A stretch of DNA of 64,000 nucleotides from Bdellovibrionota bacterium. GTDB taxonomy: Bacteria > Bdellovibrionota_C > UBA2361 > CAKMMH01. The DNA lies in NCBI GenBank assembly GCA_034180415.1, contig JAXFOK010000015.1, forward strand, positions 2,205-66,204, given 5' to 3'. The notes beneath the pieces were generated by a model. It had not been told where the DNA came from and did no database searches. It worked only from the letters and a program-made list of their open reading frames with translations. This document shows, in pieces, positions 3,919 through 39,848 of the stretch (position 1 is its first letter; every line of letters starts with the position of its first letter). A program made the position numbers and the translations under genes.

Positions 3919-4734
3919 TTGTATAAAGGATTTTTGTTTATGAATAAAAAAAATATTATAGAAAATAATAATGTCGATATAAAAAAAACAAATGAACCAC
4001 AATCAGAAATTGAAATAACATTTGTTGAAGATCCTTTATTTAGATTTTTTAAAAAATGGCAGAATGTTATTTTCTGGGGTCTTGTTGTTATAATTGCTTG
4101 CTATTTTGGTTATAATAAATATTCTGATATTAGAATAAATGAACAAAAAAGTGATGCAGATTTATTTGAAGAGTTTAGACCTATATACGCAAATATTATT
4201 ACCTTAAGTAAGGATATTAAGCAAAAAGAGTTAGAAATTCAAAAAGATACTAATGAGAAGAAAGATACTAAAGGAAAAGAAAAAGATTTAAATGAGCTAA
4301 AAGAACGTTTAACAAAATCATTAAGTGAGGCACAAAGTCGTATTAAGCCATTAGCTACAAGTAAATATTATAGCACTATTTCTAAGTTGTATTCTGCTTT
4401 ATTAAAGAAAAATGCAGGAGACCAAAAAGGTTTTGAAGAAGATATAAATAAAATAGATTTTAATAATTATAAAAATGAAAGTAATGAACAATCAAGATTT
4501 TACAAGGAGCTAGCGAGTATTATTATTGCAAAGGCCTACTTAGATGATGAAACGAAAATTTCAAATGCTAAAGAACTACTAACTAATTTAATAAAAGATG
4601 GTAAATATTTTAACGTGGTAGCTTTTAATACATTGTCAATAATTGCTAAAGGTGAGGAAGAAGAAGCGCTTAAGAAGTTAAAAGAAGAGTTGTTGAGTAA
4701 GGCTCCTGAACAATCTGAACTATTAAAAAATTAG
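3919..4734 (+). CDS. Membrane-anchored coiled-coil/TPR-like protein (possibly a YfgM-like translocon-associated protein)
   Basis: Single N-proximal transmembrane segment (VIFWGLVVIIACYFGY) followed by a charged helical region. The family assignment is tentative. Confidence 0.4.
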   Translation: MYKGFLFMNKKNIIENNNVDIKKTNEPQSEIEITFVEDPLFRFFKKWQNVIFWGLVVIIACYFGYNKYSDIRINEQKSDADLFEEFRPIYANIITLSKDIKQKELEIQKDTNEKKDTKGKEKDLNELKERLTKSLSEAQSRIKPLATSKYYSTISKLYSALLKKNAGDQKGFEEDINKIDFNNYKNESNEQSRFYKELASIIIAKAYLDDETKISNAKELLTNLIKDGKYFNVVAFNTLSIIAKGEEEEALKKLKEELLSKAPEQSELLKN

Positions 4735-4852
4735 TGATGTATCCAAGATTGCTTTGTTATATTAAGGGGGGGCAATGCTCATCGTAGCATGAGTACGCTT
4801 CCGATTGCCCCCCTTAAAATGCCACGCACTCTTGGCGTCTCACTAATTTTTT
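4735..4852. repeat. Family-A palindromic element (single copy) immediately after the stop codon of 3919..4734
   Basis: The 5' module gatgtatccaagattgc and 3' module aaatgccacgcactcttggcgtctcactaatttt match the family-A termini. The internal 14-bp inverted repeat is ttaagggggggcaat...attgccccccttaa. Confidence 0.65.
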
Positions 4853-4892
4853 AATCGCCAATGCATCTAAGATAACTATCAAAAGTTTATAT

Positions 4893-16708: not shown

Positions 16709-17050
16709 TTATTTTGAATTATTACTTGCTGCAGCTAGTGCGTCTAATTCACCGTCTGGAGAAACTATCTGAGTTACCCTTATACCAAATTTATCATTTA
16801 CTACTACTGCTTCACCTTGTGCTAATAATTTATTATTAACTCTAATATCTAAAGGTTCTTCTGGAAGTTTATTTAATTCTATAATTGAACCTTTTCTTAA
16901 TTTTATAAGTTTATCAAGAGTGCACTCAACTCTTCCTAGCTCTACAGATACTATGAGTTCTACATCATAAAAGAATTGAAGTGTACCAACTTTATCTTGA
17001 ATTGAAGCTGATTCAACAATATTCTCTTTTTCTTTTTTTTGCTCTTCCAT
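16709..17050 (-). CDS. FliN/SpoA (SctQ C-terminal) domain protein, orphan
   Basis: ELIVSVELGRVECTLDKLIKLRKGSIIELNKLPEEPLDIRVNNKLLAQGEAVVVNDKFGIRVTQI is a clear SpoA/FliN fold signature. 113 aa. No other flagellar or T3SS switch genes are adjacent. Confidence 0.75.
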   Translation of the reverse strand: MEEQKKEKENIVESASIQDKVGTLQFFYDVELIVSVELGRVECTLDKLIKLRKGSIIELNKLPEEPLDIRVNNKLLAQGEAVVVNDKFGIRVTQIVSPDGELDALAAASNNSK

Positions 17051-17235
17051 AAATTTAACCTAAGTAAAAAACTTTTCTTAGCTTATTTGATGCAAATTAT
17101 ATGAAAAAAGACTAAAAAAAGTCACAATTTTTAATATTTACTTAAAATTTTCTTCGAATTTTACCGATAAATGAAATAATCAAGGTTTATAGGTATTATA
17201 AAAAATTAGTTTTAATTGATAGATTTACGACAAAT

Positions 17236-18501
17236 ATGGAACAAATAGCTGGAAAATATAATATTATTAGGTTGTTAGGTAAAGGAGCTACTGGGGAAGT
17301 GTACCTTGTAGAGCATAATGACCTAAAGTTAGAATATGCACTAAAACTTTTGTCAAAGGAAGTTTCAAATAACGATGTGGTCGTAGAAAGATTTATAAAA
17401 GAGGCAAGATTACTAGAAAAATTTTCCCATAAAAATACTGCAAGATTAAGAGATTTTGGAAAAAATGATGATGGCCGTTATTACATGACTACTGATTTTT
17501 GTAAGGGGATTACATTAAGCGAGCTTGTAAAGAAAAGAGGGGCTATTAATTATAATTTAGCTCTTAAAATCATGATTGATATTTTAGATGTTCTATCTTG
17601 CGCACATAAAGAAGGGGTAGTTCATAGGGATATAAAATCTGAAAATGTGATAGTAAATTTTAATGAAAATTTTGATGATTATGATGAGTTAAAAGTGCTT
17701 GATTTTGGTATAGCCAAAATGAAGCAAGATATTAAATTAAATGATACAAAGACCATAGATGGTTCTGCATTAGGGACTCCTCAATATATGGCTCCAGAAC
17801 AAGCAGCTGGTGAACCTAATCTTGATCATAGGATTGATATTTATTCGGCTGGAATTGTTTTATATGAGCTTCTTGCTGGAAAAGTTCCTTTTTTTGGGGA
17901 AACTATAGTTCAAACGCTTTTAATGCATTTAACTCAGCCGATTCCTCCTTTTGATGAATCATTAAACATTCCAGAAGATGTTTCTAATATTGTTAATAAA
18001 GCATTACAAAAAATCCCTAACAATAGATATCAAACTGCTGAAATGTTTATGCAAGATTGTAAAAAGATTTTAAATTGTGAAAACGTTGGGGAAGTTTCAG
18101 GTGATAATGGTGCGTATGTTATAAATGATGAAAAAAAAGAGAAAACGAAAATTCTATGTATTGATGATAATCAGATGATTTTAAATATAATTAGCCATAT
18201 TTTAACAAAAGAGGGATTTGAAGTATTTACTACAAATGATCCGAGTACACTTCATAGTTATTTATTCCAAGAAAGAATAGATTTGTTGATTTCAGATATA
18301 AATATGCCAAGTATTAACGGTAATGATTTGTGTAAAATGTTAAAACAAACCATGCCAAGCCTTAAAATAGCACTTTTTTCGAATATTCCAGAACAAGACT
18401 TAGAAGCGCTTGCAAAAGATGCGTCAGCAGATGCTTGGATTTCAAAAAACGAAAAGCCAAATGTGTGGCTTGAAGGGATATATAAACTACTAGGAAGATA
18501 A
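17236..18501 (+). CDS. Hanks-type Ser/Thr protein kinase fused to a C-terminal response-regulator receiver (REC) domain
   Basis: Kinase motifs are intact: GKGATGEV, ALKLL (VAIK-like Lys), HRDIKSENV, DFG, APE. The C-terminal about 120 aa is KILCIDDNQMILNIISHIL ... DLLISDINMP ... IALFSN (REC with phospho-acceptor Asp). Confidence 0.85.
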   Translation: MEQIAGKYNIIRLLGKGATGEVYLVEHNDLKLEYALKLLSKEVSNNDVVVERFIKEARLLEKFSHKNTARLRDFGKNDDGRYYMTTDFCKGITLSELVKKRGAINYNLALKIMIDILDVLSCAHKEGVVHRDIKSENVIVNFNENFDDYDELKVLDFGIAKMKQDIKLNDTKTIDGSALGTPQYMAPEQAAGEPNLDHRIDIYSAGIVLYELLAGKVPFFGETIVQTLLMHLTQPIPPFDESLNIPEDVSNIVNKALQKIPNNRYQTAEMFMQDCKKILNCENVGEVSGDNGAYVINDEKKEKTKILCIDDNQMILNIISHILTKEGFEVFTTNDPSTLHSYLFQERIDLLISDINMPSINGNDLCKMLKQTMPSLKIALFSNIPEQDLEALAKDASADAWISKNEKPNVWLEGIYKLLGR

Positions 18502-18625: not shown

Positions 18626-18692
18626 TATATTGTCGAAATTCTTATTTCTTGTTAATTTTGTAATAGTTTCGTAAATATTTTGTAAAGGAATT

Positions 18693-21002
18693 ATGAAAAT
18701 GTTACAAAGAGAAAAATTATTTTTAAGTTGTGTTTTTAGTCTTGCATTTATTGTTTTAACAAATAATGGAAATGCATTGTTAATTGATGATTTTAAGGAT
18801 GTTGATAATAATGGAAATCCTCTTGGACTGCAATCAAGCGTAAATTCAACTAATAGTACAAGTTGGAATGATGTTGGGTTAGCAAATGTAGTGGGCGGTT
18901 GTCGTAAAGTTGTTTTGAGTGGAGATGGAAGTGGAGTTTTTTCAGCTGGAAAGTATTCTCACAACCAAGATGATGCAAAAACTGCAAAGTCAATAATAAC
19001 ATGGGGGGAATGTGAAGACGGTACAGTGATGTCTGAAGTAGATTTCACAAAAGATGGTTCTAAATATTTTGTAGTCAAGTATAATAGTAATGATAGCGTG
19101 GATTATAGAGGAAAAATATATTTAAGATTATGGGATAGCTCTGATCATGAAGCAAATGTTCAGTGTGATCGTTATGAATCCGAGGAAGTGTACAAATGTA
19201 TGTACAAAAAATATACAGATGTTGATGTCGAGCTAGATAAGATTGTAAAGATTCAGTTGATAATGGATGGTTCAAGTGCATCTGGTTGGGATTTCGGTAT
19301 TGAGTCAGTTTTGACTGGAAATAGCCAAAATACAGTTTGTGGTGTTGTTCCTACTGCATCAAATAATTATGGTGCTAAAGATGAATGTGGATTCTGTCCA
19401 AATGATATAATGCCTGATAAATATCAATATGGTCAAGGAAAAGATGAGTGTGATTATTGTCCAAATGATACTTTGCCTGCTAACTATCAATATGGTGATG
19501 GAAAAATTTGTCGTAATTCATGTGATGTAAATCAAAATTGCGGATGGTGTCCAACAATCGATAATCCAGGAAAAGCTCATCAGAGGTATACTTGTAAGCA
19601 ATGTGATGATGGAATGGATAATGACGGAAAGGGTGATATTGACTGTGCTGATCCTCAATGCTTAAAGGGGGTTAATGGAAGCTGTGATCCTAACTATAAT
19701 AGTGAAGCACCACAGTGTAGCAATAAGAAAGATGATGATAATGATGGTAAGGTAGATAAAAACGATCCAGCATGTCTTGATGAAAATGGCAATTATAACC
19801 CAGACCTTGATGATGAATCAGATGAACCTGCTTGTTCTGATAAAGCAGATAATGATGGTGATGGTTTGATTGATTCAAAAGATCCTGGTTGCTATGCGAA
19901 AAATCCAAATACTGGAAAATATGAATATAAGCCAAATAAAAAGAGTGAAGAAGGACCAAATACTGAATGTTCAGATTCAAAAGATAATGATGGTGATGGA
20001 TATATTGATAGTAAAGATCCTGATTGTTGGTATACTGATTCAATTAAGTTAGGTGGAACTAAAGACTATTCAAATGAATCACCTTTTTATGATTGGAATC
20101 CTTGGGATCTTTCAGAAAGTGGTGCAAGAAAGTATCAATGTTCAGATGGAAAGGATAATGATGATGATGGGTTAGTTGATGCGCAAGATCCTGGATGTTT
20201 AGATGATAGTGGTAATTGGAATCCTAAGAAAGATAGCGAAATTAATTCAGATGATGGAAAACCAGAATGTTCAGATGGTAAGGATAATGATAAAGATGGA
20301 TATATAGATTATCCTGATGATCCAGGTTGCACATCAAAGGATGATGATTCTGAAAATGACAACATTACAAAGCCTGAATGTTCTGATGGTATTGATAATG
20401 ATAAAGATGGAAAAATTGATGAAGCTGATACTTCATGTTGGGTTTATGATAATAATGGAAATCCAATTAAGTACGATCCTAATATCGATGATGAATCAGG
20501 ATGTACAACAACTTCTAATGTAAGTAACTTAGATGTTGATAATGAAAGATTAGCTACAATTGGTTTAAATGCTGCTTTATATTTAAAGAGATTCCATGCT
20601 AATTCAAGTAATGAATATAAGAGAACTACTCTTTCTGCAAAACGTGCTGGAACTAAGATTAGTAAGGAAATTAATAAGGTGGTGACAGATTTGAAATCTT
20701 ATTCAGTTTCTTGTAATAGTCAGACAGGTTCTTCATGTAGAAATAACAATAATACAGAGCTTAACAAGTTTTCACAACAAGTTAGTCAATTAAATAAACT
20801 TGTTCGTCGTGCACAAAGAAGAGGTTTGTTCTTTAAGAAGAATTTTGAAAGCAAGGCAATTTCAAAAGCTAAGCAACAAAAAGCAGGTTACAAAAATGCA
20901 AAAGCTACTATGACTAATAACAGAAAGGCTGGAACAAGAATAACTGTTTATAATAATATAAATGCCAAGGTTAGTAGTATTAAGTCATTAGCTATTTGCT
21001 AA
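18693..21002 (+). CDS. Secreted protein (769 aa) with tandem Cys-bounded Asp-rich calcium/metal-binding-type repeats (TSP3/MopE-like) and a basic Lys/Arg-rich C-terminal domain
   Basis: Signal peptide. CPND-containing units (CGFCPNDIMPDKYQYGQG, CDYCPNDTLPANYQYGDG). At least 7 units of C-S-D-x-K-D-N-D-x-D-G-x-(I/V)-D-x-x-D-P-x-C (e.g. CSDKADNDGDGLIDSKDPGC, CSDSKDNDGDGYIDSKDPDC). Basic tail rich in K/R/N/S. Confidence 0.8.
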   Translation: MKMLQREKLFLSCVFSLAFIVLTNNGNALLIDDFKDVDNNGNPLGLQSSVNSTNSTSWNDVGLANVVGGCRKVVLSGDGSGVFSAGKYSHNQDDAKTAKSIITWGECEDGTVMSEVDFTKDGSKYFVVKYNSNDSVDYRGKIYLRLWDSSDHEANVQCDRYESEEVYKCMYKKYTDVDVELDKIVKIQLIMDGSSASGWDFGIESVLTGNSQNTVCGVVPTASNNYGAKDECGFCPNDIMPDKYQYGQGKDECDYCPNDTLPANYQYGDGKICRNSCDVNQNCGWCPTIDNPGKAHQRYTCKQCDDGMDNDGKGDIDCADPQCLKGVNGSCDPNYNSEAPQCSNKKDDDNDGKVDKNDPACLDENGNYNPDLDDESDEPACSDKADNDGDGLIDSKDPGCYAKNPNTGKYEYKPNKKSEEGPNTECSDSKDNDGDGYIDSKDPDCWYTDSIKLGGTKDYSNESPFYDWNPWDLSESGARKYQCSDGKDNDDDGLVDAQDPGCLDDSGNWNPKKDSEINSDDGKPECSDGKDNDKDGYIDYPDDPGCTSKDDDSENDNITKPECSDGIDNDKDGKIDEADTSCWVYDNNGNPIKYDPNIDDESGCTTTSNVSNLDVDNERLATIGLNAALYLKRFHANSSNEYKRTTLSAKRAGTKISKEINKVVTDLKSYSVSCNSQTGSSCRNNNNTELNKFSQQVSQLNKLVRRAQRRGLFFKKNFESKAISKAKQQKAGYKNAKATMTNNRKAGTRITVYNNINAKVSSIKSLAIC

Positions 21003-21003
21003 T

Positions 21004-21388
21004 AAAATTGACGATGCATCCAAGATTGCGTCGTTATTCGAGAGAGATGCCGTCCTCGCTGTACTTAATAGTACAGCTGTGGGTGCATCCTCTCGAATGC
21101 CTAGCACTCTTGGCGCCTCGTCAATTTTATATATTAAGACGATGCATGTGATGATGCTACGTTCATTTTGAGGGATAAACGGTCCTTGCTGTACTTAATA
21201 GTACAGCTGTGGGAGCATCCTCCCGAATGCCTAGCACTCTTGGCGCCTCGTCAATTTTATATATTAAGACGATGCATGTGATGATGCTACGTTCATTTTG
21301 AGGGATAAACGGTCCTTGCTGTACTAATCGTACAGCTGTGGGAGCATCCTCTCGAATGCCTAGCACTCTTGGTGCCTCGTCAATTTTA
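21004..21388. repeat. Tandem array of three family-A palindromic elements (units about 121 nt)
   Basis: Copy 1 is 21004–21128. Copies 2 and 3 (21129–21249, 21250–21388) form a 121-nt direct repeat (atattaagacgatgcatgtgatgatgc...). Each has a central hairpin gctgtacttaatagtacagc and a 3' module gaatgcctagcactcttggcgcctcgtcaatttt. Termini are inverted complements. The ORF 21163..21408 is a repeat artefact. Confidence 0.8.
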
Positions 21389-21514
21389 TAAAATGGACCT
21401 TTTAACAACCCCTAAAAGGTAAAAGTTTTAATGGGTTGGTGCGTAATTAAAGTTTGCTGTGAAAAATTTCGATATTGAGTATAGGTTGGATTATATTTTT
21501 TTAAGTTTTAAGCT

Positions 21515-22762
21515 ATGAAATTATTAATTATTGATGTTTCAACAGAAGCTCAAGCAAAGTGTGCTAAAAAAATAGAGCCTTTTAATAGAAGTGATGTCGA
21601 AATGCTTGATTTAAAAATCAAGCTTGCAAACGAGCAAACTTATAAAGATATTCTAGAAGGAGCAGATGTTGCAATACTTGGTGCAGGGTTAGGTGAGTCT
21701 GCAATAGTGGTCGCAAGAGAGATTGCAAGCGTGTGCCCTTGGATGAATATTATAATGTTTGTTAAAGAGTCATTATACGGTGGAAGCTCTTTTAGAAGCG
21801 CACATTCAGTGGGCGTAAGAAAAGTTTTTTCTGATAACGCAAGTCCTCTTGATTTCTTGCAAGAACTTGTAGCAATTCACAGTGAATTTAGAAAAGAAGG
21901 TCGAGCCAGGGAAGGTATAGTTGTCGCGGTGAATCATGCCAAGGGAGGCGTCGGAGCAACTTCAATTTGCGCAGCTCTTGCAGAGGTTTGTGGAGTTTAT
22001 AATAAAAGGACACTTCTTTGGGATTTAGATGTCGAGACAAGAGATTTAAGTCGCTCTCTTACTGCAAGTGGAACAGAAGCCAAAGTAGTTTCATCGTGGG
22101 TTAATGGTTCAAGAGAAATTTCAAGAGAATCTTTAAAAGATGCACTTTTACCTATAAGTAATGAAGTTTCAATATTAATTCCACCAGATTGTATGGCTGA
22201 GTCTATGGATTTAGTGTGTCATACAGATAGTATAGCTCTTTGTAGTAGAATTTTAGAGCTTTCAAGAGTGCTTTTTGACGTAATTATTATTGATACTGGT
22301 GGAAGAATGGGACCTGCTACTGGAGCAGTAGTAAGAAATAGTGATAAAACTTTAATTGTTATTGATGATACGATTTTGGGACTAACAGCTGTCGATCTTT
22401 ATTTAAATTTTATTAAGAGTTTAGTTGGAACTCCAGATAGAATTAATTTTTTAATAAATCAATATACTGGAAATCTTCTTACAAAAAATCAGATTGAAGC
22501 TGAGTTAGAACCTATTCATAGGTTAGGACATGAGGTTTGGAGCTTAGATCCAGTGTATATGGACCCAAAAGCTAGCCTTTGGTCAGCAAGTGGTAAGACG
22601 CTTTATAGTTTAGGTAATAGAAATACAAGAGTTGCTCTAGAAAAGATGGCTGTAATTCTAGGACTTACTATTCAACATGGCGTAGTAAAGAGAGAAAACC
22701 AAGCAAATAATAACCAAAAAGAAAAAGGACATAAGTTTTTGAATTTTTTTAATAAAAAATAA
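21515..22762 (+). CDS. tadZ: TadZ/CpaE-type pilus-assembly ATPase (ParA/MinD-like, N-terminal degenerate receiver domain)
   Basis: N-terminal MKLLIIDVSTEAQAK REC-like fold. Deviant Walker A AVNHAKGGVGATSICAALA. 415 aa. Located at the head of the flp operon. Confidence 0.8.
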   Translation: MKLLIIDVSTEAQAKCAKKIEPFNRSDVEMLDLKIKLANEQTYKDILEGADVAILGAGLGESAIVVAREIASVCPWMNIIMFVKESLYGGSSFRSAHSVGVRKVFSDNASPLDFLQELVAIHSEFRKEGRAREGIVVAVNHAKGGVGATSICAALAEVCGVYNKRTLLWDLDVETRDLSRSLTASGTEAKVVSSWVNGSREISRESLKDALLPISNEVSILIPPDCMAESMDLVCHTDSIALCSRILELSRVLFDVIIIDTGGRMGPATGAVVRNSDKTLIVIDDTILGLTAVDLYLNFIKSLVGTPDRINFLINQYTGNLLTKNQIEAELEPIHRLGHEVWSLDPVYMDPKASLWSASGKTLYSLGNRNTRVALEKMAVILGLTIQHGVVKRENQANNNQKEKGHKFLNFFNKK

Positions 22763-22935
22763 TGTTTGTTATTTTTGTTAATATTTGAATCTTTTTTTAA
22801 AAAAAAGAATCTTAATACTTAAATATATGAGGTTTGTATTTGCTGATTTTTTAGTTTTAGTTTAAGTTGTAGTTATAAATAGCTATATTTGTAAACTAAA
22901 AATTTAAATAATATATATATTAAGGAGAAAGTAAA

Positions 22936-23109
22936 ATGTTAAGAATTTTTAGTAAGAAAGAAAAAGGTGCTTCACTCGTTGAGTACGCGTTACTAGTTGC
23001 TTTAATTGCATTAGGATCAATGGCTGCTATGAGATTACTATCAAATAATATTTCAGGTGCATTCTCTCAATCAGGTAGTATATTACAAGATGTAAGTAAA
23101 GCAGGTTAA
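22936..23109 (+). CDS. flp: Flp-family pilin precursor (57 aa), absent from the supplied ORF track
   Basis: MLRIFSKKEKGASLVEYALLVALIALGSMAAMRLLSNNISGAFSQSGSILQDVSKAG carries the Flp signature (G/ASLVEYALLVALIAL: prepilin-peptidase site G|A, conserved E and Y). Strong RBS aaggagaaagtaaaATG. Sits directly upstream of cpaB/tadA/tadB/tadC. Confidence 0.8.
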   Translation: MLRIFSKKEKGASLVEYALLVALIALGSMAAMRLLSNNISGAFSQSGSILQDVSKAG

Positions 23110-23127
23110 TTTATTAAGTATTTTATT

Positions 23128-24039
23128 ATGAAGCCACTTAGTTCTCAACCAGATAGTAATTCTAAGCTAATTTTTTTAGTTGCAATTGTTGTAATGCTTT
23201 TGCTAGGTGGCTTTCTTTTAATTTTTTTCGGATTTAGTAATAAATCTAATAATACCGGACAAAATTTTGATAATCCACAAAGTGAATTGAATGATAATAT
23301 AAATACTAGAGCAGAAAATAATGCAAATGTTGAAAGAACAGTTCAGGTTTTAGTTACAATAAGAGATATTAAAAATGGCGAAAAATTAGATCCTACAATG
23401 TTTAGGAAAGAAACAAGGCCAGAAAATTTTGTTAAACCTGATGATTATAGAGATTTTTCACAGATAGATGGTTTTTTTGCAAAATCAGATATTGGATTTA
23501 GAGAAACTATAGACCCAAATAAAGTATCAAGAAAAAAACCAGTAAATACTATAACGGCTAATATTCCTGAAGGTTACAGAGCTGTTACAATTAATGTTGA
23601 TGTGACAAGTAGTGTAGAAGGTTGGGCAAGAGCAGGAGCGTTTGTTGATGTTGTATGGAATTCAGTGATAAATGGAAAACCAGCTGCTACTGTAATTATT
23701 CAAAATGCAAAAATTTTATCAGCAGAAAGGCAAATTGAGGCTAATCCACAAGAGGGACAGGCTCCTGTTCCTAGTACTGTAACACTTCTTGTGCTTGCGG
23801 ATGATGCAACAAAAATTCATCTTGCAGAAACCACTGGTAAGTTAAGTTTACAGTTAAGAGGGGACGATGCTGAAAAAGGATTTGGGGCAAGAACTTCCCT
23901 TACAATAGATGATTTACTTGATAAGAATAATGGTAAAAAAGATAATAAAAAGTATGATGCTATTGTAAAAATTAAAGGTAAAAATGGTAAAATGGAAAGG
24001 TGGGGATTAAAGGATGGAAGTCTTGTTCTAATTGAGTAA
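23128..24039 (+). CDS. cpaB: CpaB/RcpC-family Flp pilus assembly protein
   Basis: N-terminal TM anchor, then a SAF-like region (VQVLVTIRDIKNGEKLDPTMFRKETRPENFVKPD) and a beta-rich C-terminus, at the canonical position between flp and tadA. Confidence 0.65.
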   Translation: MKPLSSQPDSNSKLIFLVAIVVMLLLGGFLLIFFGFSNKSNNTGQNFDNPQSELNDNINTRAENNANVERTVQVLVTIRDIKNGEKLDPTMFRKETRPENFVKPDDYRDFSQIDGFFAKSDIGFRETIDPNKVSRKKPVNTITANIPEGYRAVTINVDVTSSVEGWARAGAFVDVVWNSVINGKPAATVIIQNAKILSAERQIEANPQEGQAPVPSTVTLLVLADDATKIHLAETTGKLSLQLRGDDAEKGFGARTSLTIDDLLDKNNGKKDNKKYDAIVKIKGKNGKMERWGLKDGSLVLIE

Positions 24040-24057
24040 TTTTAAAAGAAGTTATAA

Positions 24058-25515
24058 ATGGCAAGAAATGAGACTAATGATGATTTAACAAGTTTGTTTT
24101 CTACAAGAAATAAGATGATAAATGAATCATCGCAAGGGGAGAATAATTCGTTAATGCCATCTGTATCTGGTGGAACTTCTTCTCGAGGTATTGCAAAAAC
24201 TAATAAAAATGATTCAAAAGATTATTCTCAAGGAAATGATAGTTTTAAAAAGGAACTTTCAGAGACAGGTAATAGGGTATTAAAAGAAGCAAGAAGTGAG
24301 CTAGGGGAACTTTTAAACAAACAAAAAGAATCTAACAAAGCTATTGATGAGTCAACGATTATTAAAGCTGTAGAAAAGGTTATTGAAAAAAATGAAGTTT
24401 CACTTCCTGACTTAGAAAAGGCTACTATTATTATTCATCTTCAAAAGGATTTGCTTGGTTGGGGAGTTTTACAGCCTCTTATAGATAATCCAGAAGTTAC
24501 AGATATTCACGTTTATGATTATGCTACAGTCGTGCTTCAACGTGGTAAAGTTAGTGAAAGAACTCAGTATCGATGGCCATCCAAACAAGTTTATATAGCA
24601 TTTATTGATAGGCTTCTTTTAAGACTTGGAAAATCACTATCTACTCAGCAACACACGGTTGATGCTGCGCTTCCAAATGGAATAAGAATTTGTGCAATTC
24701 ACGAGAGTGTTTGTGGTTCAAGAGGCCCACTTTTAAGTATTCGTGTACCAAGAGTTAGTAAAGTATCACTTGAAAGTATCGTATCATACCAAATGGCACC
24801 ACCATTAATTGTTAGGTATTTAGCAGCACTTGTAAAATGTGGTATTTGTACATTTATGATAGCAGGAGAAACTGGTACTGGTAAAACGACTATTATGAAA
24901 TGTCTTGCAACTCAATTTGGTGAAACTGAGTCAATCGTAGCTGTTGAAGATACTCCAGAACTTAATTTACAACATGAGTATTTTAGATCCCTTGTATCTC
25001 GTCCACCAAACACCGAGGGAAAAGGTGAAGTTACACTTCAAGAGCATATAAAAACTACTCTTCGTATGACACCAAACAGGGTACTACTTGGTGAAATGAG
25101 AACTCCATTTGCTGCAGAAGCTTTCTTAGAAGGTGTCCAAACAGGTCACGTTGGAATGAGTACAATTCACGCTCGTAATGCTAGAGAAACTCTTACAAGA
25201 CTTGAAGGACTTTTAGGACGTGCTCAACAGTCAGTTTCTACTGAGATTTTAAGGCAGCAAATCGCGCTTGCTGTAGATGTTGTTGTTTGGCTTTTTAGAG
25301 AAAAAGAAACGGGAAAACCAAGAGTAGGGGAAATAATTGAAGTTGGACACTGTGTTGAAGGTGTAATTCAAACGCGTCCTATGTTTTCAATTTTAAAAAC
25401 AGGAAAGGATCCTCTTTGGAGAGTCGACTCTTGGGCAAGTTTCTTTGATGAAGAGCTAGCAGAATACGGAATATTTCTAGGAGATGCGCCTCCTGAGATT
25501 AGTTTAAAAGACTAG
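24058..25515 (+). CDS. tadA: TadA/CpaF pilus-assembly ATPase (T2SS/T4SS secretion ATPase superfamily)
   Basis: Walker A IAGETGTGKTTIMKCL, Asp box, Walker B and His box (GHVGMSTIHA). The N-terminal about 140-aa extension is unusually long. Locally higher GC is typical of a conserved ATPase. Confidence 0.9.
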   Translation: MARNETNDDLTSLFSTRNKMINESSQGENNSLMPSVSGGTSSRGIAKTNKNDSKDYSQGNDSFKKELSETGNRVLKEARSELGELLNKQKESNKAIDESTIIKAVEKVIEKNEVSLPDLEKATIIIHLQKDLLGWGVLQPLIDNPEVTDIHVYDYATVVLQRGKVSERTQYRWPSKQVYIAFIDRLLLRLGKSLSTQQHTVDAALPNGIRICAIHESVCGSRGPLLSIRVPRVSKVSLESIVSYQMAPPLIVRYLAALVKCGICTFMIAGETGTGKTTIMKCLATQFGETESIVAVEDTPELNLQHEYFRSLVSRPPNTEGKGEVTLQEHIKTTLRMTPNRVLLGEMRTPFAAEAFLEGVQTGHVGMSTIHARNARETLTRLEGLLGRAQQSVSTEILRQQIALAVDVVVWLFREKETGKPRVGEIIEVGHCVEGVIQTRPMFSILKTGKDPLWRVDSWASFFDEELAEYGIFLGDAPPEISLKD

Positions 25516-25555
25516 CATAATATATATGTTTTTTAAAAAAAGGTTTTAAGAAAAA

Positions 25556-26485
25556 GTGTCTATTGAGGTTATACTAGGAATAATATTAATTCTTTTGTCA
25601 ATAATTGTCGCTTGTGTGCTATTATTGTCTAATAATAATTCTAGTCATTCAAATTTTAAAAGTTTAAGTTCTCAAAAGAATAACAATGATAATAATTTAG
25701 AAGATATTGATTTTGTAAAAGTAGAAAGAACTAGCAATGGAAAATATACTTTAAGACAAAAAATGATATATGCAAATTGGAAATTTCCTCCAATCCTATT
25801 TAATATGTTTAGGTTTTCATTAGCAATTTTATGCTTTATGATAGCAAAGACCTATTTTAAGATTTTTTTATCTACTATTATTGCCTTTTTAGCTTTTAAC
25901 TTTGCAAATGGTTTTTTAAACAGGGCAATAAAGAAAAGATTCGATGCGTTTGATAAAGACTATCCAACATTTTTACAAACAATAGTAAGTTTATTAAAAT
26001 CTGGTATGAATGTACTTACTGCTATAGATTCAGCATCTGAGGGGCTAGAAGATACGTCACTTTTAAAAAGTGAAGTTAAGGTCATGATGGAAAGATTAAG
26101 AGCAGGAGTCGGTGAAGAAAAAGCTATTGGAAATTTTGGAGCAACAATTGATCATCCAGAAATTGAATTATTTATCCAAACTATAATTTTAGGAAAAAGC
26201 CTAGGTGGTTCTTTATCTATGACCCTTGATAGGCTTGCAGAACAAGTAAGAAAAAGACAATATTTTAGAGGCTCAGCAGTTGCTTCTATAGCACAGCAAA
26301 AAGGATCTTTATGGGTTATTTTATATTTATTATCAGGTTTAATTATTACAATTGGATGTAAAGCTCCAGATTTATTTGCTGTTGGATTGCATAGCAATGG
26401 TGGTAGAATGGTCTTGGAAATAGGAATATGTATTATATTGCTTGGAATATTTTGGATTAAGAAAGTTATAAATATTAAGGTATAA
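25556..26485 (+). CDS. tadB: TadB (GspF-like inner-membrane platform protein)
   Basis: T2SSF domain (PTFLQTIVSLLKSGMNVLTAIDSASEGL ... IQTIILGKSLGGSLSMTLDRLAEQVRKR) with flanking TM helices. GTG start. Confidence 0.75.
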   Translation: MSIEVILGIILILLSIIVACVLLLSNNNSSHSNFKSLSSQKNNNDNNLEDIDFVKVERTSNGKYTLRQKMIYANWKFPPILFNMFRFSLAILCFMIAKTYFKIFLSTIIAFLAFNFANGFLNRAIKKRFDAFDKDYPTFLQTIVSLLKSGMNVLTAIDSASEGLEDTSLLKSEVKVMMERLRAGVGEEKAIGNFGATIDHPEIELFIQTIILGKSLGGSLSMTLDRLAEQVRKRQYFRGSAVASIAQQKGSLWVILYLLSGLIITIGCKAPDLFAVGLHSNGGRMVLEIGICIILLGIFWIKKVINIKV

Positions 26486-27346
26486 ATGAATTTATTAATT
26501 GGTTTTATCATAATTTTTGCGATTATAACTTTTGTGTTATTTGTAGTAATTGTTTATTCGAATAAGAAAAATCAAGAAAAATCTACTCCTAAATATTTAT
26601 CAAATTCTTCTAAAAAAAATGTAGCAAAAAATAATACTAAATCAAAGAATGGTAAAGATGAAAGTTTAGAATCACTTTTTTATAGAGCTGGAATCTTTGA
26701 TGAAAAAGACAAGGCGGCTTTTAATAGGAAAAAAGTGCTTTATCCATTAATTTTTGGAATTATAGGAGCCATATTAGGGATTTATTATGGAGGATATTCA
26801 CTTTTTCTAATGCCTACCTTAGGTGCATATCTTGGTTTAAAATTTCCAGGAAGAATACTAAATAAAAGAATAAAAGAAAGAGATGAAGATATCTTATACT
26901 ATTTACCACTTGTAATAGAGCAATTAGTTGTAGGAGTAAGTAGCGCACTTGATATAGGCCCATGTATAGCTTATGTCGTCGATATGGCAGAAAAAAGAGG
27001 AACACATAATCCTGTCACAATTCTTTTAAAACAAGTACAAATTTTAGTTAGATTTGGTGCATCATTAGATGACGCACTTGTAGATGTTGGTAAGCAATCA
27101 GGTCATAATGAACTTAAAAATAGCTTTTTACAACTTTCACAGGTTACAAAGCATGGTGGTGAAATTACGAAACAATTACAAGATCTTGGAACAACAGTTA
27201 CAAGACAACGTGAGATTATAATTGATGAACGTATAAAAAGATTGGAATTAAAAGCAACAGGCCCTGTATTTTTAGTATTTGCCGGCCATATGGCTATATT
27301 ATTAGCATTCTTATTTATGGGGCTAGCAAAATCTCTTAGTAATTAA
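26486..27346 (+). CDS. tadC: TadC (second GspF-like platform protein)
   Basis: T2SSF-like region (ILYYLPLVIEQLVVGVSSALDIGPCIAYVVDMAEK ... QVQILVRFGASLDDALVDVG) plus TM helices. The start abuts the tadB stop. Confidence 0.75.
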   Translation: MNLLIGFIIIFAIITFVLFVVIVYSNKKNQEKSTPKYLSNSSKKNVAKNNTKSKNGKDESLESLFYRAGIFDEKDKAAFNRKKVLYPLIFGIIGAILGIYYGGYSLFLMPTLGAYLGLKFPGRILNKRIKERDEDILYYLPLVIEQLVVGVSSALDIGPCIAYVVDMAEKRGTHNPVTILLKQVQILVRFGASLDDALVDVGKQSGHNELKNSFLQLSQVTKHGGEITKQLQDLGTTVTRQREIIIDERIKRLELKATGPVFLVFAGHMAILLAFLFMGLAKSLSN

Positions 27347-27411: not shown

Positions 27412-29496
27412 ATGAAGAAATTTCAGATTCAAGGGCAAGATTTTGTATTAGCACTTTTTGTGCTATCAATTACCGCAATGCTTGTAATACCACTTCCTAC
27501 AAGTATGCTTGATTTCTTGCTTGTTATTAACATTTCATTTTCATTGCTTCTTTTACTTGCTGGATTATATATGCCAAATGCGTTGGCATTAATTTCTTTT
27601 CCTTCACTTCTTTTATTAACAACACTTTTTAGATTAGGTTTAAATGTAGCATCTACAAGATTAATTTTGAGCCAAGGAGATGCAGGCCATGTTATTGAGG
27701 CTTTCGGTACATTCTTAATTAGAGGTGAAGTAACAATTGGTGTTATTATATTTTTAATAATAACAATTGTAAATTTTATAGTTATCGCAAAAGGTGCAAA
27801 TCGTGTATCAGAGATTACAGCAAGATTTTCACTAGAATCGCTTCCTGGAAAACAAATGGCAATAGACTCTGATCTTCGTTCAGGAGTCATTGATGTTAAT
27901 CAAGCTAGAAAAAGAAGAGATGACTTAAGAAAAGAATCACAGCTTTATGCTGCTATGGACGGAGCGATGAAATTTATTCAAGGTGATGCAATTGCGGGCT
28001 TCTTTATAACACTTACAAATATTATAGGTGGTTTGTATATAAGTTTAAGAGGTGGAATGAGCCTTGGTGAAGCTGTAGAAACTTATACAACGTTAACTGT
28101 AGGTGATGGATTAGTTAGTCAAATTCCTGCGCTTTTAATATCAATATGCGCTGGTATCGTTGTTACAAGAGTTAGCTCAGGTGAAAATTCAACACTTGGT
28201 AAAGAACTTCAAGGACAACTTCTTAGTAGTCCAAGTATTATAATTTTTACAGGTTCTGTACTATTTTTCTTTGCTATACTCCCAGGACTTCCTGCATTAC
28301 AATTTATAAGTGTTGGTACGTTCTTAATAAGTGTTGGTTTATATTTAAATTACAAAAAAAGAGAAAGTACAAGAAATGTGGAGTTTCTTCCAATATCAGT
28401 TCTAAAGGCAAATCGAGAATTGTTAGAAAGCGATAATAGTAAAATACAAAATGTATTTCAAATATTTATAGATAAAGAGTTTGGAAGTTACGTAAATGAT
28501 AACTCACTTTCTATTTTACAGAAATGTAATGAGTATAAGGAAAATTTTAAAAAAATGACAGGTTTCGAGTTTCCTCAATTTAAATTTGTCATAAAAAATG
28601 AAATATTAAAAAATGCATTTAAAGTTTATAAATTGAACACGCTTGTCGTAGAATCTAGTTTTAAAGATGACATGATATATTTAAATATTAATAAATCTGA
28701 GCTTCCAATTTTGGGATTAAAAGATTTTGTTGAGGATTATCATCCTATATATGGAAATAAACTTTATGGCGTTATTAAAAATACATATACAAGTTTGTTA
28801 TGTGAAGAAACGGATTTAATGTATTATGATAAAATCGATTGGATTTTATTAAATATTGCAAGTTTTTGCATTGATAATCCAATAGAGTTTTTTAGCATTT
28901 CGGATATTACAAAAGTGTTGAAAGATATAGAAAAAGATTATCCAGAGATAATAAAAGATTTGTTTTCTATACCCAAAGTTAATAGTGCAAAAATTTTCAA
29001 AGTATATGCTGAGCTCATGAGACAAGAGATATTTTATATATCACATAAAGAAATTTTAGAAGGTATTATTTCATATTTTAATGGTTATAATGTATCTGAC
29101 GAATCTGATTTTGATGTATTTAATATTGTAAGTTATATAAGGCAAAGTAAAAAATTACATGTTACGTATAATTCAATTTATAAAGATAAAAGAATAAAAC
29201 TTTGTAGTATTTCAGATGAACTTCAAGAAACTTTTGAAGAAATGATACCACAAGTTTATGAGGGAAGTGTTAATTTAGATTTAAAAGATTTTGGGGTAAT
29301 TAAGAATAATATTGTGGCACTTCAAAGACCATATTTAGAAAAAGGTGTAACAAGCTTTTCGATAGTTAGTTCTAAAGAGTTAATACCTGTTATATATAGT
29401 GTACTTAAGATTTTTCAATTAAAGATTAATATAGTAGAATTTGATGAGTTAACATCTGATTTAAAAATAGAACATATTGGAATTTGGAGAAAATGA
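27412..29496 (+). CDS. FlhA/SctV-family (FHIPEP) type-III export-gate protein paralog, encoded at the 3' end of the tad operon
   Basis: The N-terminal 330 aa align almost residue-by-residue with the FlhA membrane domain (LLLTTLFRLGLNVASTRLIL, ITARFSLESLPGKQMAIDSDL, MDGAMKFIQGDAIAG, TVGDGLVSQIPALLISICAGIVVTRV). The C-terminal cytoplasmic domain is divergent but retains an FlhA-like stretch (KENFKKMTGFEFPQFKFVIKN, cf. RKKFAQDMGFLPPVVHIRDN). Confidence 0.85.
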   Translation: MKKFQIQGQDFVLALFVLSITAMLVIPLPTSMLDFLLVINISFSLLLLLAGLYMPNALALISFPSLLLLTTLFRLGLNVASTRLILSQGDAGHVIEAFGTFLIRGEVTIGVIIFLIITIVNFIVIAKGANRVSEITARFSLESLPGKQMAIDSDLRSGVIDVNQARKRRDDLRKESQLYAAMDGAMKFIQGDAIAGFFITLTNIIGGLYISLRGGMSLGEAVETYTTLTVGDGLVSQIPALLISICAGIVVTRVSSGENSTLGKELQGQLLSSPSIIIFTGSVLFFFAILPGLPALQFISVGTFLISVGLYLNYKKRESTRNVEFLPISVLKANRELLESDNSKIQNVFQIFIDKEFGSYVNDNSLSILQKCNEYKENFKKMTGFEFPQFKFVIKNEILKNAFKVYKLNTLVVESSFKDDMIYLNINKSELPILGLKDFVEDYHPIYGNKLYGVIKNTYTSLLCEETDLMYYDKIDWILLNIASFCIDNPIEFFSISDITKVLKDIEKDYPEIIKDLFSIPKVNSAKIFKVYAELMRQEIFYISHKEILEGIISYFNGYNVSDESDFDVFNIVSYIRQSKKLHVTYNSIYKDKRIKLCSISDELQETFEEMIPQVYEGSVNLDLKDFGVIKNNIVALQRPYLEKGVTSFSIVSSKELIPVIYSVLKIFQLKINIVEFDELTSDLKIEHIGIWRK

Positions 29497-39356: not shown

Positions 39357-39730
39357 AAAATTGGCGATGCATCGCGAAGATTGTTGCGTTATTTGAATGT
39401 AAGTCTTGCTAGCTGTACAAAAGTACAGCGTCGCTTCGAGTTCATTCAAATGCCTTGCACTCTTCGCGCCTCGCCAATTTTTTATAGGCAAAGAGAAGAG
39501 AAAGATTTTGGCGATGCATCGCGAAGATTGCTGCGTTATTTGAATGTAAGTCTTGCTAGCTGTACAAAAGTACAGCGTCGCTTCGAGTTCACTTAAATGC
39601 CTTGCACTCTTCGCGCCTCGCCAATTTTTTATAGGCAAAGAGAAGAGAAAGATTTTAGCGATGCATCGCGAAGATCGCTGGTTATTTGAATTTAACTCTT
39701 GCTAGCTGTACAAAAGTACTGCTACATACC
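39357..39730. repeat. Tandem array of family-A palindromic elements (two full units of about 149 nt plus a truncated third)
   Basis: Each unit is aaaattggcgatgcatcgcgaagattg ... gctgtacaaaagtacagcg ... caaatgccttgcactcttcgcgcctcgccaatttttt, separated by the spacer ggcaaagagaagagaaagatt. The termini are inverted complements. ORFs 39231..39638 and 39381..39596 are repeat artefacts. Confidence 0.8.
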
Positions 39731-39848
39731 TGACCCGTAAGGGTAATGGTACCTGCAGGTCTAAATTTTTGCACAAAATGTGATTTGATTCGAGAAATTA
39801 TGGGATATTTGCGATTTGATTCTGAATCGTAAGAATTTTAAGGAAAAA

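Follow-up and report, generated by a model that had tools for sequence, protein, structure and literature searches.

In thrombospondins, which offer a loose analogy for the protein described here, Ca2+ repeats occur alongside a beta-sandwich of lectin-like type and a helical domain for oligomerisation, and the copper site of MopE uses His-based ligands. In the crystal structure of the Cys-rich (C-rich) domain of teneurin-4, three Ca2+ ions are bound by E835, D840, D843, N844, D845, D847, D851, D854 and D856 together with backbone carbonyls; sites I and II are superimposable on thrombospondin type 3 (T3) repeats, site III is like that of low-density lipoprotein receptor class A (LDLR-A), and the disulfides connect cysteines 1-3, 2-5 and 4-6 (PMC9058538). 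Tucker et al. reported that a core of 23 aa in the Cys-rich domain of teneurin “aligns well” with the motif of MopE; a diatom/algal origin was proposed for it in 2012 (PMC3278476). In Myxococcales, the receptor TraA has a polymorphic, PA14-like variable domain between its signal sequence and its Cys-rich repeats, and it carries a MYXO-CTERM tag; members of one recognition group share 95-100% identity in the variable domain, and the figure between groups is 45-85%, with indels (PMC6372800). The mosaic adhesive trimer (MAT) fibres of Bdellovibrio carry variable binding domains, and one of these fibres recognises a glycan on the surface of the prey (PMC10769870). In this work, we describe a gene (18693..21002, + strand; 769-aa ORF) that recalls each of these systems in part. 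It lies in a 64,000-nt stretch of the Bdellovibrionota bacterium assembly GCA_034180415.1 (contig JAXFOK010000015.1, positions 2,205 to 66,204 of the forward strand), which is hereafter called the window.

The encoded protein combines repeats of a known family with two orphan domains, in an architecture that is new and restricted to one lineage, and its head is markedly polymorphic. A predicted signal peptide is followed by a beta-jelly-roll head, a Cys-rich linker, an acidic stalk with seven repeats and a basic tail. With moderate confidence, we regard the gene product as an exported, disulfide-rich, Ca2+-stiffened recognition or adhesion protein of the extracellular space or cell surface, whose head is polymorphic.

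The acidic stalk (aa 301-604; 19593..20504, + strand) belongs to the NCBIfam family NF033662 (“acidic double-disulfide repeat”, acid_disulf_rpt), which matched the protein in seven stretches with 143.9 bits against a cut-off of 41 (E 7.6e-43), well above what chance would give. A scan with the regular expression C-x-[DN]-x2-D-[DN]-D-x-[DK]-G-x-[IV]-D...C found seven Cys-bounded units at aa 304, 342, 381, 426, 483, 526 and 563. The seven modules lie on the + strand at 19602-19661, 19716-19775, 19833-19892, 19968-20027, 20139-20198, 20268-20330 and 20379-20438. An earlier reading of this DNA, made from the letters and the ORF list only (the sequence-only reading), had described at least seven tandem units of this pattern; the pattern and the number hold, and linkers of 16-37 aa intervene, so that the units are not strictly head-to-tail. 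At the DNA level, the units form diverged direct repeats (families D2 and D3) which are 63-79% identical, and because of this low identity they are taken as old and not as the result of recent slippage. The stalk contains 85 D+E against 31 K+R, with a pI of 4.05 and a net charge of about −54.

Searches against sequences of known structure clearly connected these repeats with teneurins. The whole protein matched the C-rich domain of teneurin-4 (7PLP, E 4.8e-5). When a profile built from 22 repeat units (A3) was searched against the PDB sequences, the sole significant matches were thirteen distinct teneurin sequences (teneurin-4, -3, -2 and Drosophila Ten-m; E 5.4e-8 to 2.5e-3); a few EF-hand loops appeared with insignificant E-values, and no thrombospondin or COMP chain was found at E<=10. 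In the reciprocal direction, a teneurin-4 24-mer matched NF033662 alone (E 9.2e-9). The sequence-only reading had compared the repeats with thrombospondin type 3 and MopE, and these leads were reasonable for a calcium-binding type of repeat at the level of the motif; as family assignments both were rejected, the window protein having no match at E<=1 to either Pfam TSP_3 (PF02412) or Cu-binding_MopE (PF11617). The element D-N-D-x-D-G-x-[IV]-D-x-x-D, present in repeats 2-7 and in a variant form in repeat 1, corresponds to the DxDxDGxxDxxD Ca2+ motif of T3 repeats, but the Cys spacing differs, so the likeness to thrombospondins is one of motif and of likely mechanism.

In the teneurin C-rich domain (residues 834-871 of human teneurin-4, 7PLP), the core C-x-D-x-K-D-N-D-G-D-G-x-[IV]-D-x-x-D-P-x-C is nearly identical to that of the window repeats, which keep seven of the nine Ca2+ side-chain ligands and the equivalent of the C838-C857 disulfide. 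The equivalents of D840, D843, N844, D845, D847, D851 and D854 are identical in repeats 3-7, and repeats 1 and 2 carry single substitutions; an equivalent of E835 is found in repeat 3 alone and one of D856 in repeat 4 alone. Taken together, these data support a calcium-binding type of module, and the core idea of the sequence-only reading stands. By comparison with the teneurin ligands, we predict that at least the two T3-like sites of each module are occupied, the third, LDLR-A-like site being doubtful and probably missing. There are clear differences as well. Teneurin is a eukaryotic type II membrane protein with a single copy of the domain and three disulfides, whereas the window protein has seven copies with mostly one disulfide each, and it lacks the YD-shell, NHL and TTR domains and is thus not a teneurin-like protein. 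Within NF033662, whose name implies two disulfides per unit, the window protein also differs: only repeat 1 keeps the second Cys pair (C304, C318, C323 and C331 allow two pairs), and repeats 2-7 have the outer pair alone, that is, one disulfide each.

The connection ties a curated, uncharacterised family to a solved Ca2+-binding structure, and so its metal-binding residues can be predicted. NF033662 proteins occur in Myxococcota, Bdellovibrionota, bacteria of the candidate phyla radiation (CPR) and some archaea, often together with galactose-binding-domain (GBD)-like, PPC, PKD or DUF11 domains; no statement of a link between the family and the teneurin C-rich domain was found in the literature searched, and a paper of 2026 that deals with bacterial teneurin-like proteins leaves the C-rich domain aside. 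The NF033662 module is abundant in predatory members of Myxococcota and Bdellovibrionota, and we tentatively suggest that the C-rich domain of teneurin may derive from this bacterial module. This piece of the teneurin ectodomain could then be bacterial in origin like the rest of it, which, if true, would revise the diatom/algal origin (PMC3278476).

The second line of evidence concerns the N-terminal head (aa 29-215; 18777..19337, + strand; 4 Cys). An AlphaFold2 (AF2) model of the head alone gave a beta-sandwich with a mean predicted local distance difference test (pLDDT) score of 90.1 and a predicted template modelling (pTM) score of 0.88, and Foldseek placed it among beta-jelly-rolls of the carbohydrate-binding module (CBM) and galactose-binding-domain type. 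The best PDB matches were CBM11, CBM30, CBM28, CBM6 and CBM27, accessory modules of GH50 agarases and of a xanthanase, and APC10/Doc1, with TM scores of 0.35-0.48. No sequence relatives of the head were found in Pfam, the PDB sequences or PHROGs. PHROGs gave no match for the tail or the whole protein either, and thus no sign of a phage origin. A search of a 5.8-billion-protein database with a single head sequence and with a profile of nine alleles also returned nothing, a result that is uninformative since known 95%-identical relatives were missed as well. On the strength of the model, the head is a member of the CBM-like fold class with no close relative.

Comparison with near-clonal strains clearly showed that the head is hypervariable in an otherwise nearly invariant neighbourhood. 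On both sides of the gene, as many as ten flanking genes show synonymous divergence (dS) of 0.00-0.04 and amino acid identity of 98-100%, with flp as the exception (57 codons; dS up to 0.08). For the head, dS rises to 0.74-1.39 and non-synonymous divergence (dN) to 0.28-0.43 (dN/dS about 0.33-0.5), and amino acid identity falls to 49-63%, whereas residues 343-769 again show dS of 0.02-0.10 and identity of 96-99%. Sliding windows of 60 nt show a nucleotide identity of 98-100% that gives way to 47-88% and later returns, with sharp breakpoints. The extent of the divergent stretch depends on the pair compared (orthologous loci are designated by L numbers): it covers 18780-19726 against L003 and 18900-19309 against L007, and against L009 it is reduced to small patches at 19490-19606 and 19787-19906. 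The maximal extent of the recombinationally replaced segment is thus 18780..19726 (+ strand), and divergence begins directly after the signal-peptide cleavage site.

The alleles fall into discrete classes. Among 30 of the 35 full-length family members, chosen for a backbone at least 95% identical, four head classes with 8, 8, 7 and 7 members were distinguished, near-equal frequencies that come from a small, biased sample of database sequences. Heads are at least 90% identical within a class and 49-62% identical, with indels, between classes. Two further classes were confirmed on long contigs at the same locus. Each of the four classes is present in several independent assemblies or samples, and because the four classes recur in this way, it is unlikely that assembly chimeras alone account for the differences. 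The L007 head is 71% identical to that of L008, from a distant species, vs. 62% to the heads of sister strains. No second head copy, paralog or silent cassette of any domain was found in the 64-kb window. A diversity-generating retroelement was rejected because of the indels, the saturated synonymous change and the sharp breakpoints, which are those of allelic replacement and not of targeted mutagenesis; no reverse transcriptase gene was seen among the ORFs examined, which did not comprise every ORF of the window. Judged from these alignments, the head bears the signature of a balanced, recombining polymorphism, as expected of an exposed recognition surface. The locus is a candidate determinant of specificity that can be put to the test: in a near-clonal population of an uncultured, low-GC lineage of Bdellovibrionota, it carries four head alleles that are balanced and recombining.

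Export of the protein, as proposed by the sequence-only reading, agrees with the features of its N-terminus, recognised by inspection. Residues 1-28 (18693..18776, + strand) form a predicted Sec (type I) signal peptide with n-, h- and c-regions, namely basic K2, R6 and K8, a hydrophobic core at aa 9-22 (Kyte-Doolittle 10-mer maximum of 2.96 at aa 13-22) and the c-region TNNGNA, with likely cleavage before LL. The Ala-Leu junction (A28 and L29, TNNGNA|LL) is invariant among orthologs. The mature protein contains 34 Cys, an even number in each domain: 4 in the head, 10 in the linker (with C301 included), 4 in repeat 1, 12 in repeats 2-7, and 4 in C604 plus the tail. The even parity together with the signal-peptide-like N-terminus therefore points to an oxidising, extracytoplasmic place for the protein. 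A lipoprotein was considered and rejected on inspection, since LFLSC at aa 9-13 is preceded by a hydrophobic stretch of merely 4 residues and makes a poor lipobox.

Between head and stalk lies the Cys-rich linker (aa 216-300, 9 Cys; 19338..19592, + strand). It comprises two 21-aa KDECxxCPND...YxYGxGK units and a degenerate third (NCGWCPT), in agreement with the CPND-type units that had been noticed ahead of the acidic repeats. At the DNA level, Tandem Repeats Finder (TRF) detected the two clear units as a 63-bp repeat present 2.0 times at 19377-19505 with 83% matches (KDECxxCPND...YQYGxG twice). The linker region is kept in orthologs and has no family match in Pfam or NCBIfam.

The C-terminal tail (aa 605-769 and the stop codon; 20505..21002, + strand) is basic, as had been seen correctly (pI 10.5; 31 K+R vs. 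8 D+E; net charge about +23), yet it is not of low complexity, as 59 of its 165 positions, many of them Arg and Lys, are invariant across five diverse orthologs. It contains the near-invariant motif VRRAQRRGLFFKKN, the motif RRAQRRGLFFKK and cysteines at 674, 682 and 769, the last of which stands 0-2 residues from the C-terminus. AF2 predicted the tail to be alpha-helical. An exhaustive HMMER search of 1.84e9 representative proteins returned only the tail's own family, and there is no relative among the PDB sequences. The tail is encoded in 3 of 185,579 species genomes, all of them uncultured Bdellovibrionota/Bdellovibrionales metagenome-assembled genomes (MAGs), and is a conserved orphan domain of a narrow Bdellovibrionota lineage. 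Possibly, it represents a new means of retaining proteins on the cell surface.

Full-length relatives form about 10 clusters with 40-95% identity, all unannotated, and the other matches share the repeat alone; each of the 120 listed matches of the full-length search has 5-21 repeat copies. In Myxococcota proteins the repeat is often joined to galactose-binding-like or PPC beta-sandwiches, and the head and tail of the window protein are common to no other member of the repeat family. The members of the family all come from ENA, Logan or NCBI assemblies. Head and tail profiles found no relatives in the JGI metagenomes (241 million records), which may reflect a habitat that JGI seldom samples. 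In two unrelated proteins (P0031 and P0117), an N-terminal methylation motif like that of type IV pilins occurs together with NF033662 repeats, of which there are six or seven, and with a Pfam MopE motif set apart at the C-terminus; both look like pseudopilins bearing Ca2+ repeats.

The following mechanism would accommodate these features. The protein would be exported by the Sec pathway, its signal peptide removed and its disulfides formed. The head would be the ligand-recognition end; prey, host, substrate or sister cells would present the ligand, most probably a glycan or some other surface epitope, and diversifying or frequency-dependent selection would keep the four head alleles, swapped by homologous recombination. 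The short linker would be Cys-knotted, and each of the seven modules would bind Ca2+ through a DxDNDxDGxxDxxD cage, about 14 or more ions in total, such that in a Ca2+-containing medium the loaded stalk would be stiff and protease-resistant and would space the head from the tail. The basic, helical tail might attach the protein to an anionic partner, such as the lipopolysaccharide (LPS) of its own outer membrane or another polyanion, or it might serve in self-association. With a CBM-like head that varies so strongly between alleles, the adhesin role suggested by the sequence-only reading, or one in recognition, has gained support. A broader proposal sees here a hitherto unrecognised class of polymorphic recognition receptors of Bdellovibrionota, in which a swappable lectin-like head sets kin, prey or host specificity, as TraA does in myxobacteria, on a Ca2+ stalk with a new type of basic helical anchor ending in an invariant Cys; this we put forward only tentatively and judge rather unlikely. 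The MAT fibres of a predator of the same phylum are likewise modular surface proteins, but they are trimeric and of another architecture; they are likened to the window protein by function only.

Several observations weigh against recognition at the cell surface by a Ca2+-loaded protein. The resemblance of the head to CBMs, at the TM scores given above and about 10% identity, is a likeness of fold class only, and no sugar-binding residues were identified in the head. The hypervariability means unusual selection on the segment, and avoidance of phages or predators would give the same pattern. In the stalk, hardly any repeat has an equivalent of E835 or D856, and repeats 2-7 lack two of the three disulfides of teneurin, so the Ca2+ stoichiometry and affinity may differ from those of teneurin; AF2 gave low pLDDT for the stalk, and its models carry no ions. 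The tail helices were also predicted at low pLDDT. Neither an outer-membrane route nor a sorting or anchoring tag was found, the tail having no match in Pfam or NCBIfam, and a periplasmic location is a possible alternative to surface display.

Other explanations account for parts of the data. By analogy with TraA, the protein could be a homotypic self/kin receptor in which heads of the same allele bind each other, the four alleles defining four recognition groups. Both proteins begin with a type I signal and a polymorphic beta-sandwich, go on with Cys-rich repeats and finish in a conserved end that includes an invariant Cys; identities among heads of one class and of different classes are comparable to those of TraA, indels included, and near-equal allele frequencies are what negative frequency dependence predicts. 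Nevertheless, there is no PA14 match in Pfam, no match to MYXO-CTERM or another sorting tag and no traB-like gene adjoining, the repeat family is a different one, the organism is not known as social, and the frequencies come from the same small, biased set of 30 sequences. The resemblance to TraA is thus functional only, and we consider homotypic binding quite unlikely. The very high acidic charge density and the roughly seven multi-Ca2+ sites would also suit a periplasmic or extracellular Ca2+ buffer, or a ligand-free structural matrix protein in which the basic tail and the acidic stalk self-assemble electrostatically and the head is a structural cap. This explanation appears improbable, as it leaves unexplained why alleles are replaced in the head only while the stalk and tail stay 97-99% identical. 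A MopE-like protein binding copper or another transition metal might be suggested by the short core G-x-D-[DN]-[DN]-x-D-G-x-x-D, which MopE and the window repeats share, and by the published alignment of the teneurin C-rich core with the MopE motif (PMC3278476). But the window repeats have no His ligands, with 0 His and 1 Met in the 304 residues of aa 301-604, the conserved ligands are all Asp/Asn oxygen donors typical of Ca2+, the MopE family is not matched by the window protein, and in P0031 and P0117 the MopE motif is separate from the repeats. A transition-metal role is therefore extremely unlikely.

A further explanation is suggested by the neighbourhood, in which the gene could encode an accessory adhesin or matrix factor of the adjacent Tad (tight adherence)/Flp pilus, either co-regulated with it or displayed on it. 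The tad locus reported by the sequence-only reading is indeed present downstream, as a compact cluster (21515..27346, + strand) assigned by Pfam matches and consisting of tadZ (TadZ-like ATPase, 21515-22762), flp (Flp pilin, 22936-23109), rcpC (RcpC, 23128-24039), tadA (24058-25515), tadB (25556-26485) and tadC (26486-27346). The gene stands directly 5′ of this tadZ-flp-rcpC-tadA-tadB-tadC series in the window, in L010 and L011, and at the 61-67%-identical ortholog in L001, and the unrelated P0031 and P0117 join the same repeat to a type IV pilin-like N-terminus. By contrast, the orthologs in the more distant loci L002/L006 and L005 have no tad genes beside them, the downstream genes being a PP2C-like gene, Kdo kinase, GT9, YicC and Gmk, so that the search for such proteins beside tad loci in relatives gave a divided answer. 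What is conserved lies upstream instead: a block with PP2C, DprA, a 187-aa gene, a FliN-like gene and a Ser/Thr kinase-receiver gene is kept in all loci for which upstream sequence was available. Moreover, a spacer of 382-512 bp with hairpin and T-run units precedes tadZ, and the protein has a classical signal peptide, no prepilin signal (G/XXXXEY) and no Pfam or NCBIfam Tad match. Because the adjacency is lineage-specific and this terminator-like spacer intervenes, the gene is probably a transcription unit separate from tad, the link being positional; the functional link drawn from the position of the gene is not upheld, and a role as a Tad factor seems a poor prospect.

The spacer itself deserves a description. 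It measures 512 bp from the stop codon to tadZ in the window and contains one to three palindromic units across loci, with a copy number of 3 in the window, 2 in L010 and 1 in L011. In the window the units form a tandem hairpin array (21009..21390, + strand) of 2.6 copies of 130 bp (TRF score 636, 96% matches). The units are long, imperfect palindromes that finish with a terminator-like hairpin and T-run, with sites at 21110 and 21240, and the palindrome consensus folds into a single hairpin of 36 pairs, 17 of which show compensatory changes. No Rfam family matched anywhere in the window. The array belongs to a dispersed family of imperfect palindromic units of about 120-147 nt, frequently arranged in tandem, seen at 21009-21390, 39361-39800 and about 4745-4860 and at 3350-3580 in L008. 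In the window the units sit right after the + strand stop codons at 4734, 21002 and 39356, and their local GC content is about 0.40 vs. a background of about 0.30. These elements resemble ERIC/REP-like sequences or extended terminators. Three short-read contigs end 64-78 bp beyond the stop codon of the gene, within the first palindromic unit.

Directly after the tad cluster comes flhA (FHIPEP, 27412-29496), and the compact tad plus flhA arrangement is also found in L001, L010 and L011. An rcpA secretin, tadD or prepilin peptidase gene was not found among the adjacent ORFs examined. In the lineages with no tad cluster the gene lies within a Ser/Thr-signalling cluster (PP2C, a 187-aa protein weakly FHA-like, kinase), and there the ortholog is followed by a conserved gene of 240-262 aa (12160-12882 in L002, 996-1784 in L005), which has no recorded Pfam match and looks PP2C/SpoIIE-like by eye. 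The pair of FliN-like and kinase-receiver genes is inverted between lineages (16709-18501 in the window vs. 7981-9759 in L001 and 8043-9852 in L002): in the window, L003, L007 and L009-L011 the FliN-like gene is on the − strand and the kinase gene on the + strand, whereas in L001 and L002 the kinase gene is on the − strand and the FliN-like gene on the + strand, directly upstream of the ortholog.

As to the gene itself, its 5′ end offers two in-frame ATGs, at 18693 and 18699. A Shine-Dalgarno-like AGGA at 18686-18689 is separated from them by 3 nt and 9 nt, respectively. Since this spacing favours the second ATG and the ortholog calls begin at the second Met, translation may in fact begin at 18699. 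Just 5′ of the start codon, at 18655-18699, there are 2.9 copies of an AT-rich 11-bp unit (ATTTTGTAAAT). The 117-aa ORF on the − strand (19690..20043), which had been set aside as an antisense reading of the GAT/GAC-rich repeats, is a compositional artefact and no gene: in codon-shuffled copies of the gene, antisense open runs measured 96 +/- 24 aa with a maximum of 209, and the length of 117 aa is within this range. In L001 (Bdellovibrionota MAG GCA_050952645.1, 10001-12288), the ortholog is broken in repeat 5 into ORFs of 493 and 269 aa with a 4-nt overlap; the break marks a frameshift pseudogene or else an indel error, and the name of the isolate may point to a long-read assembly.

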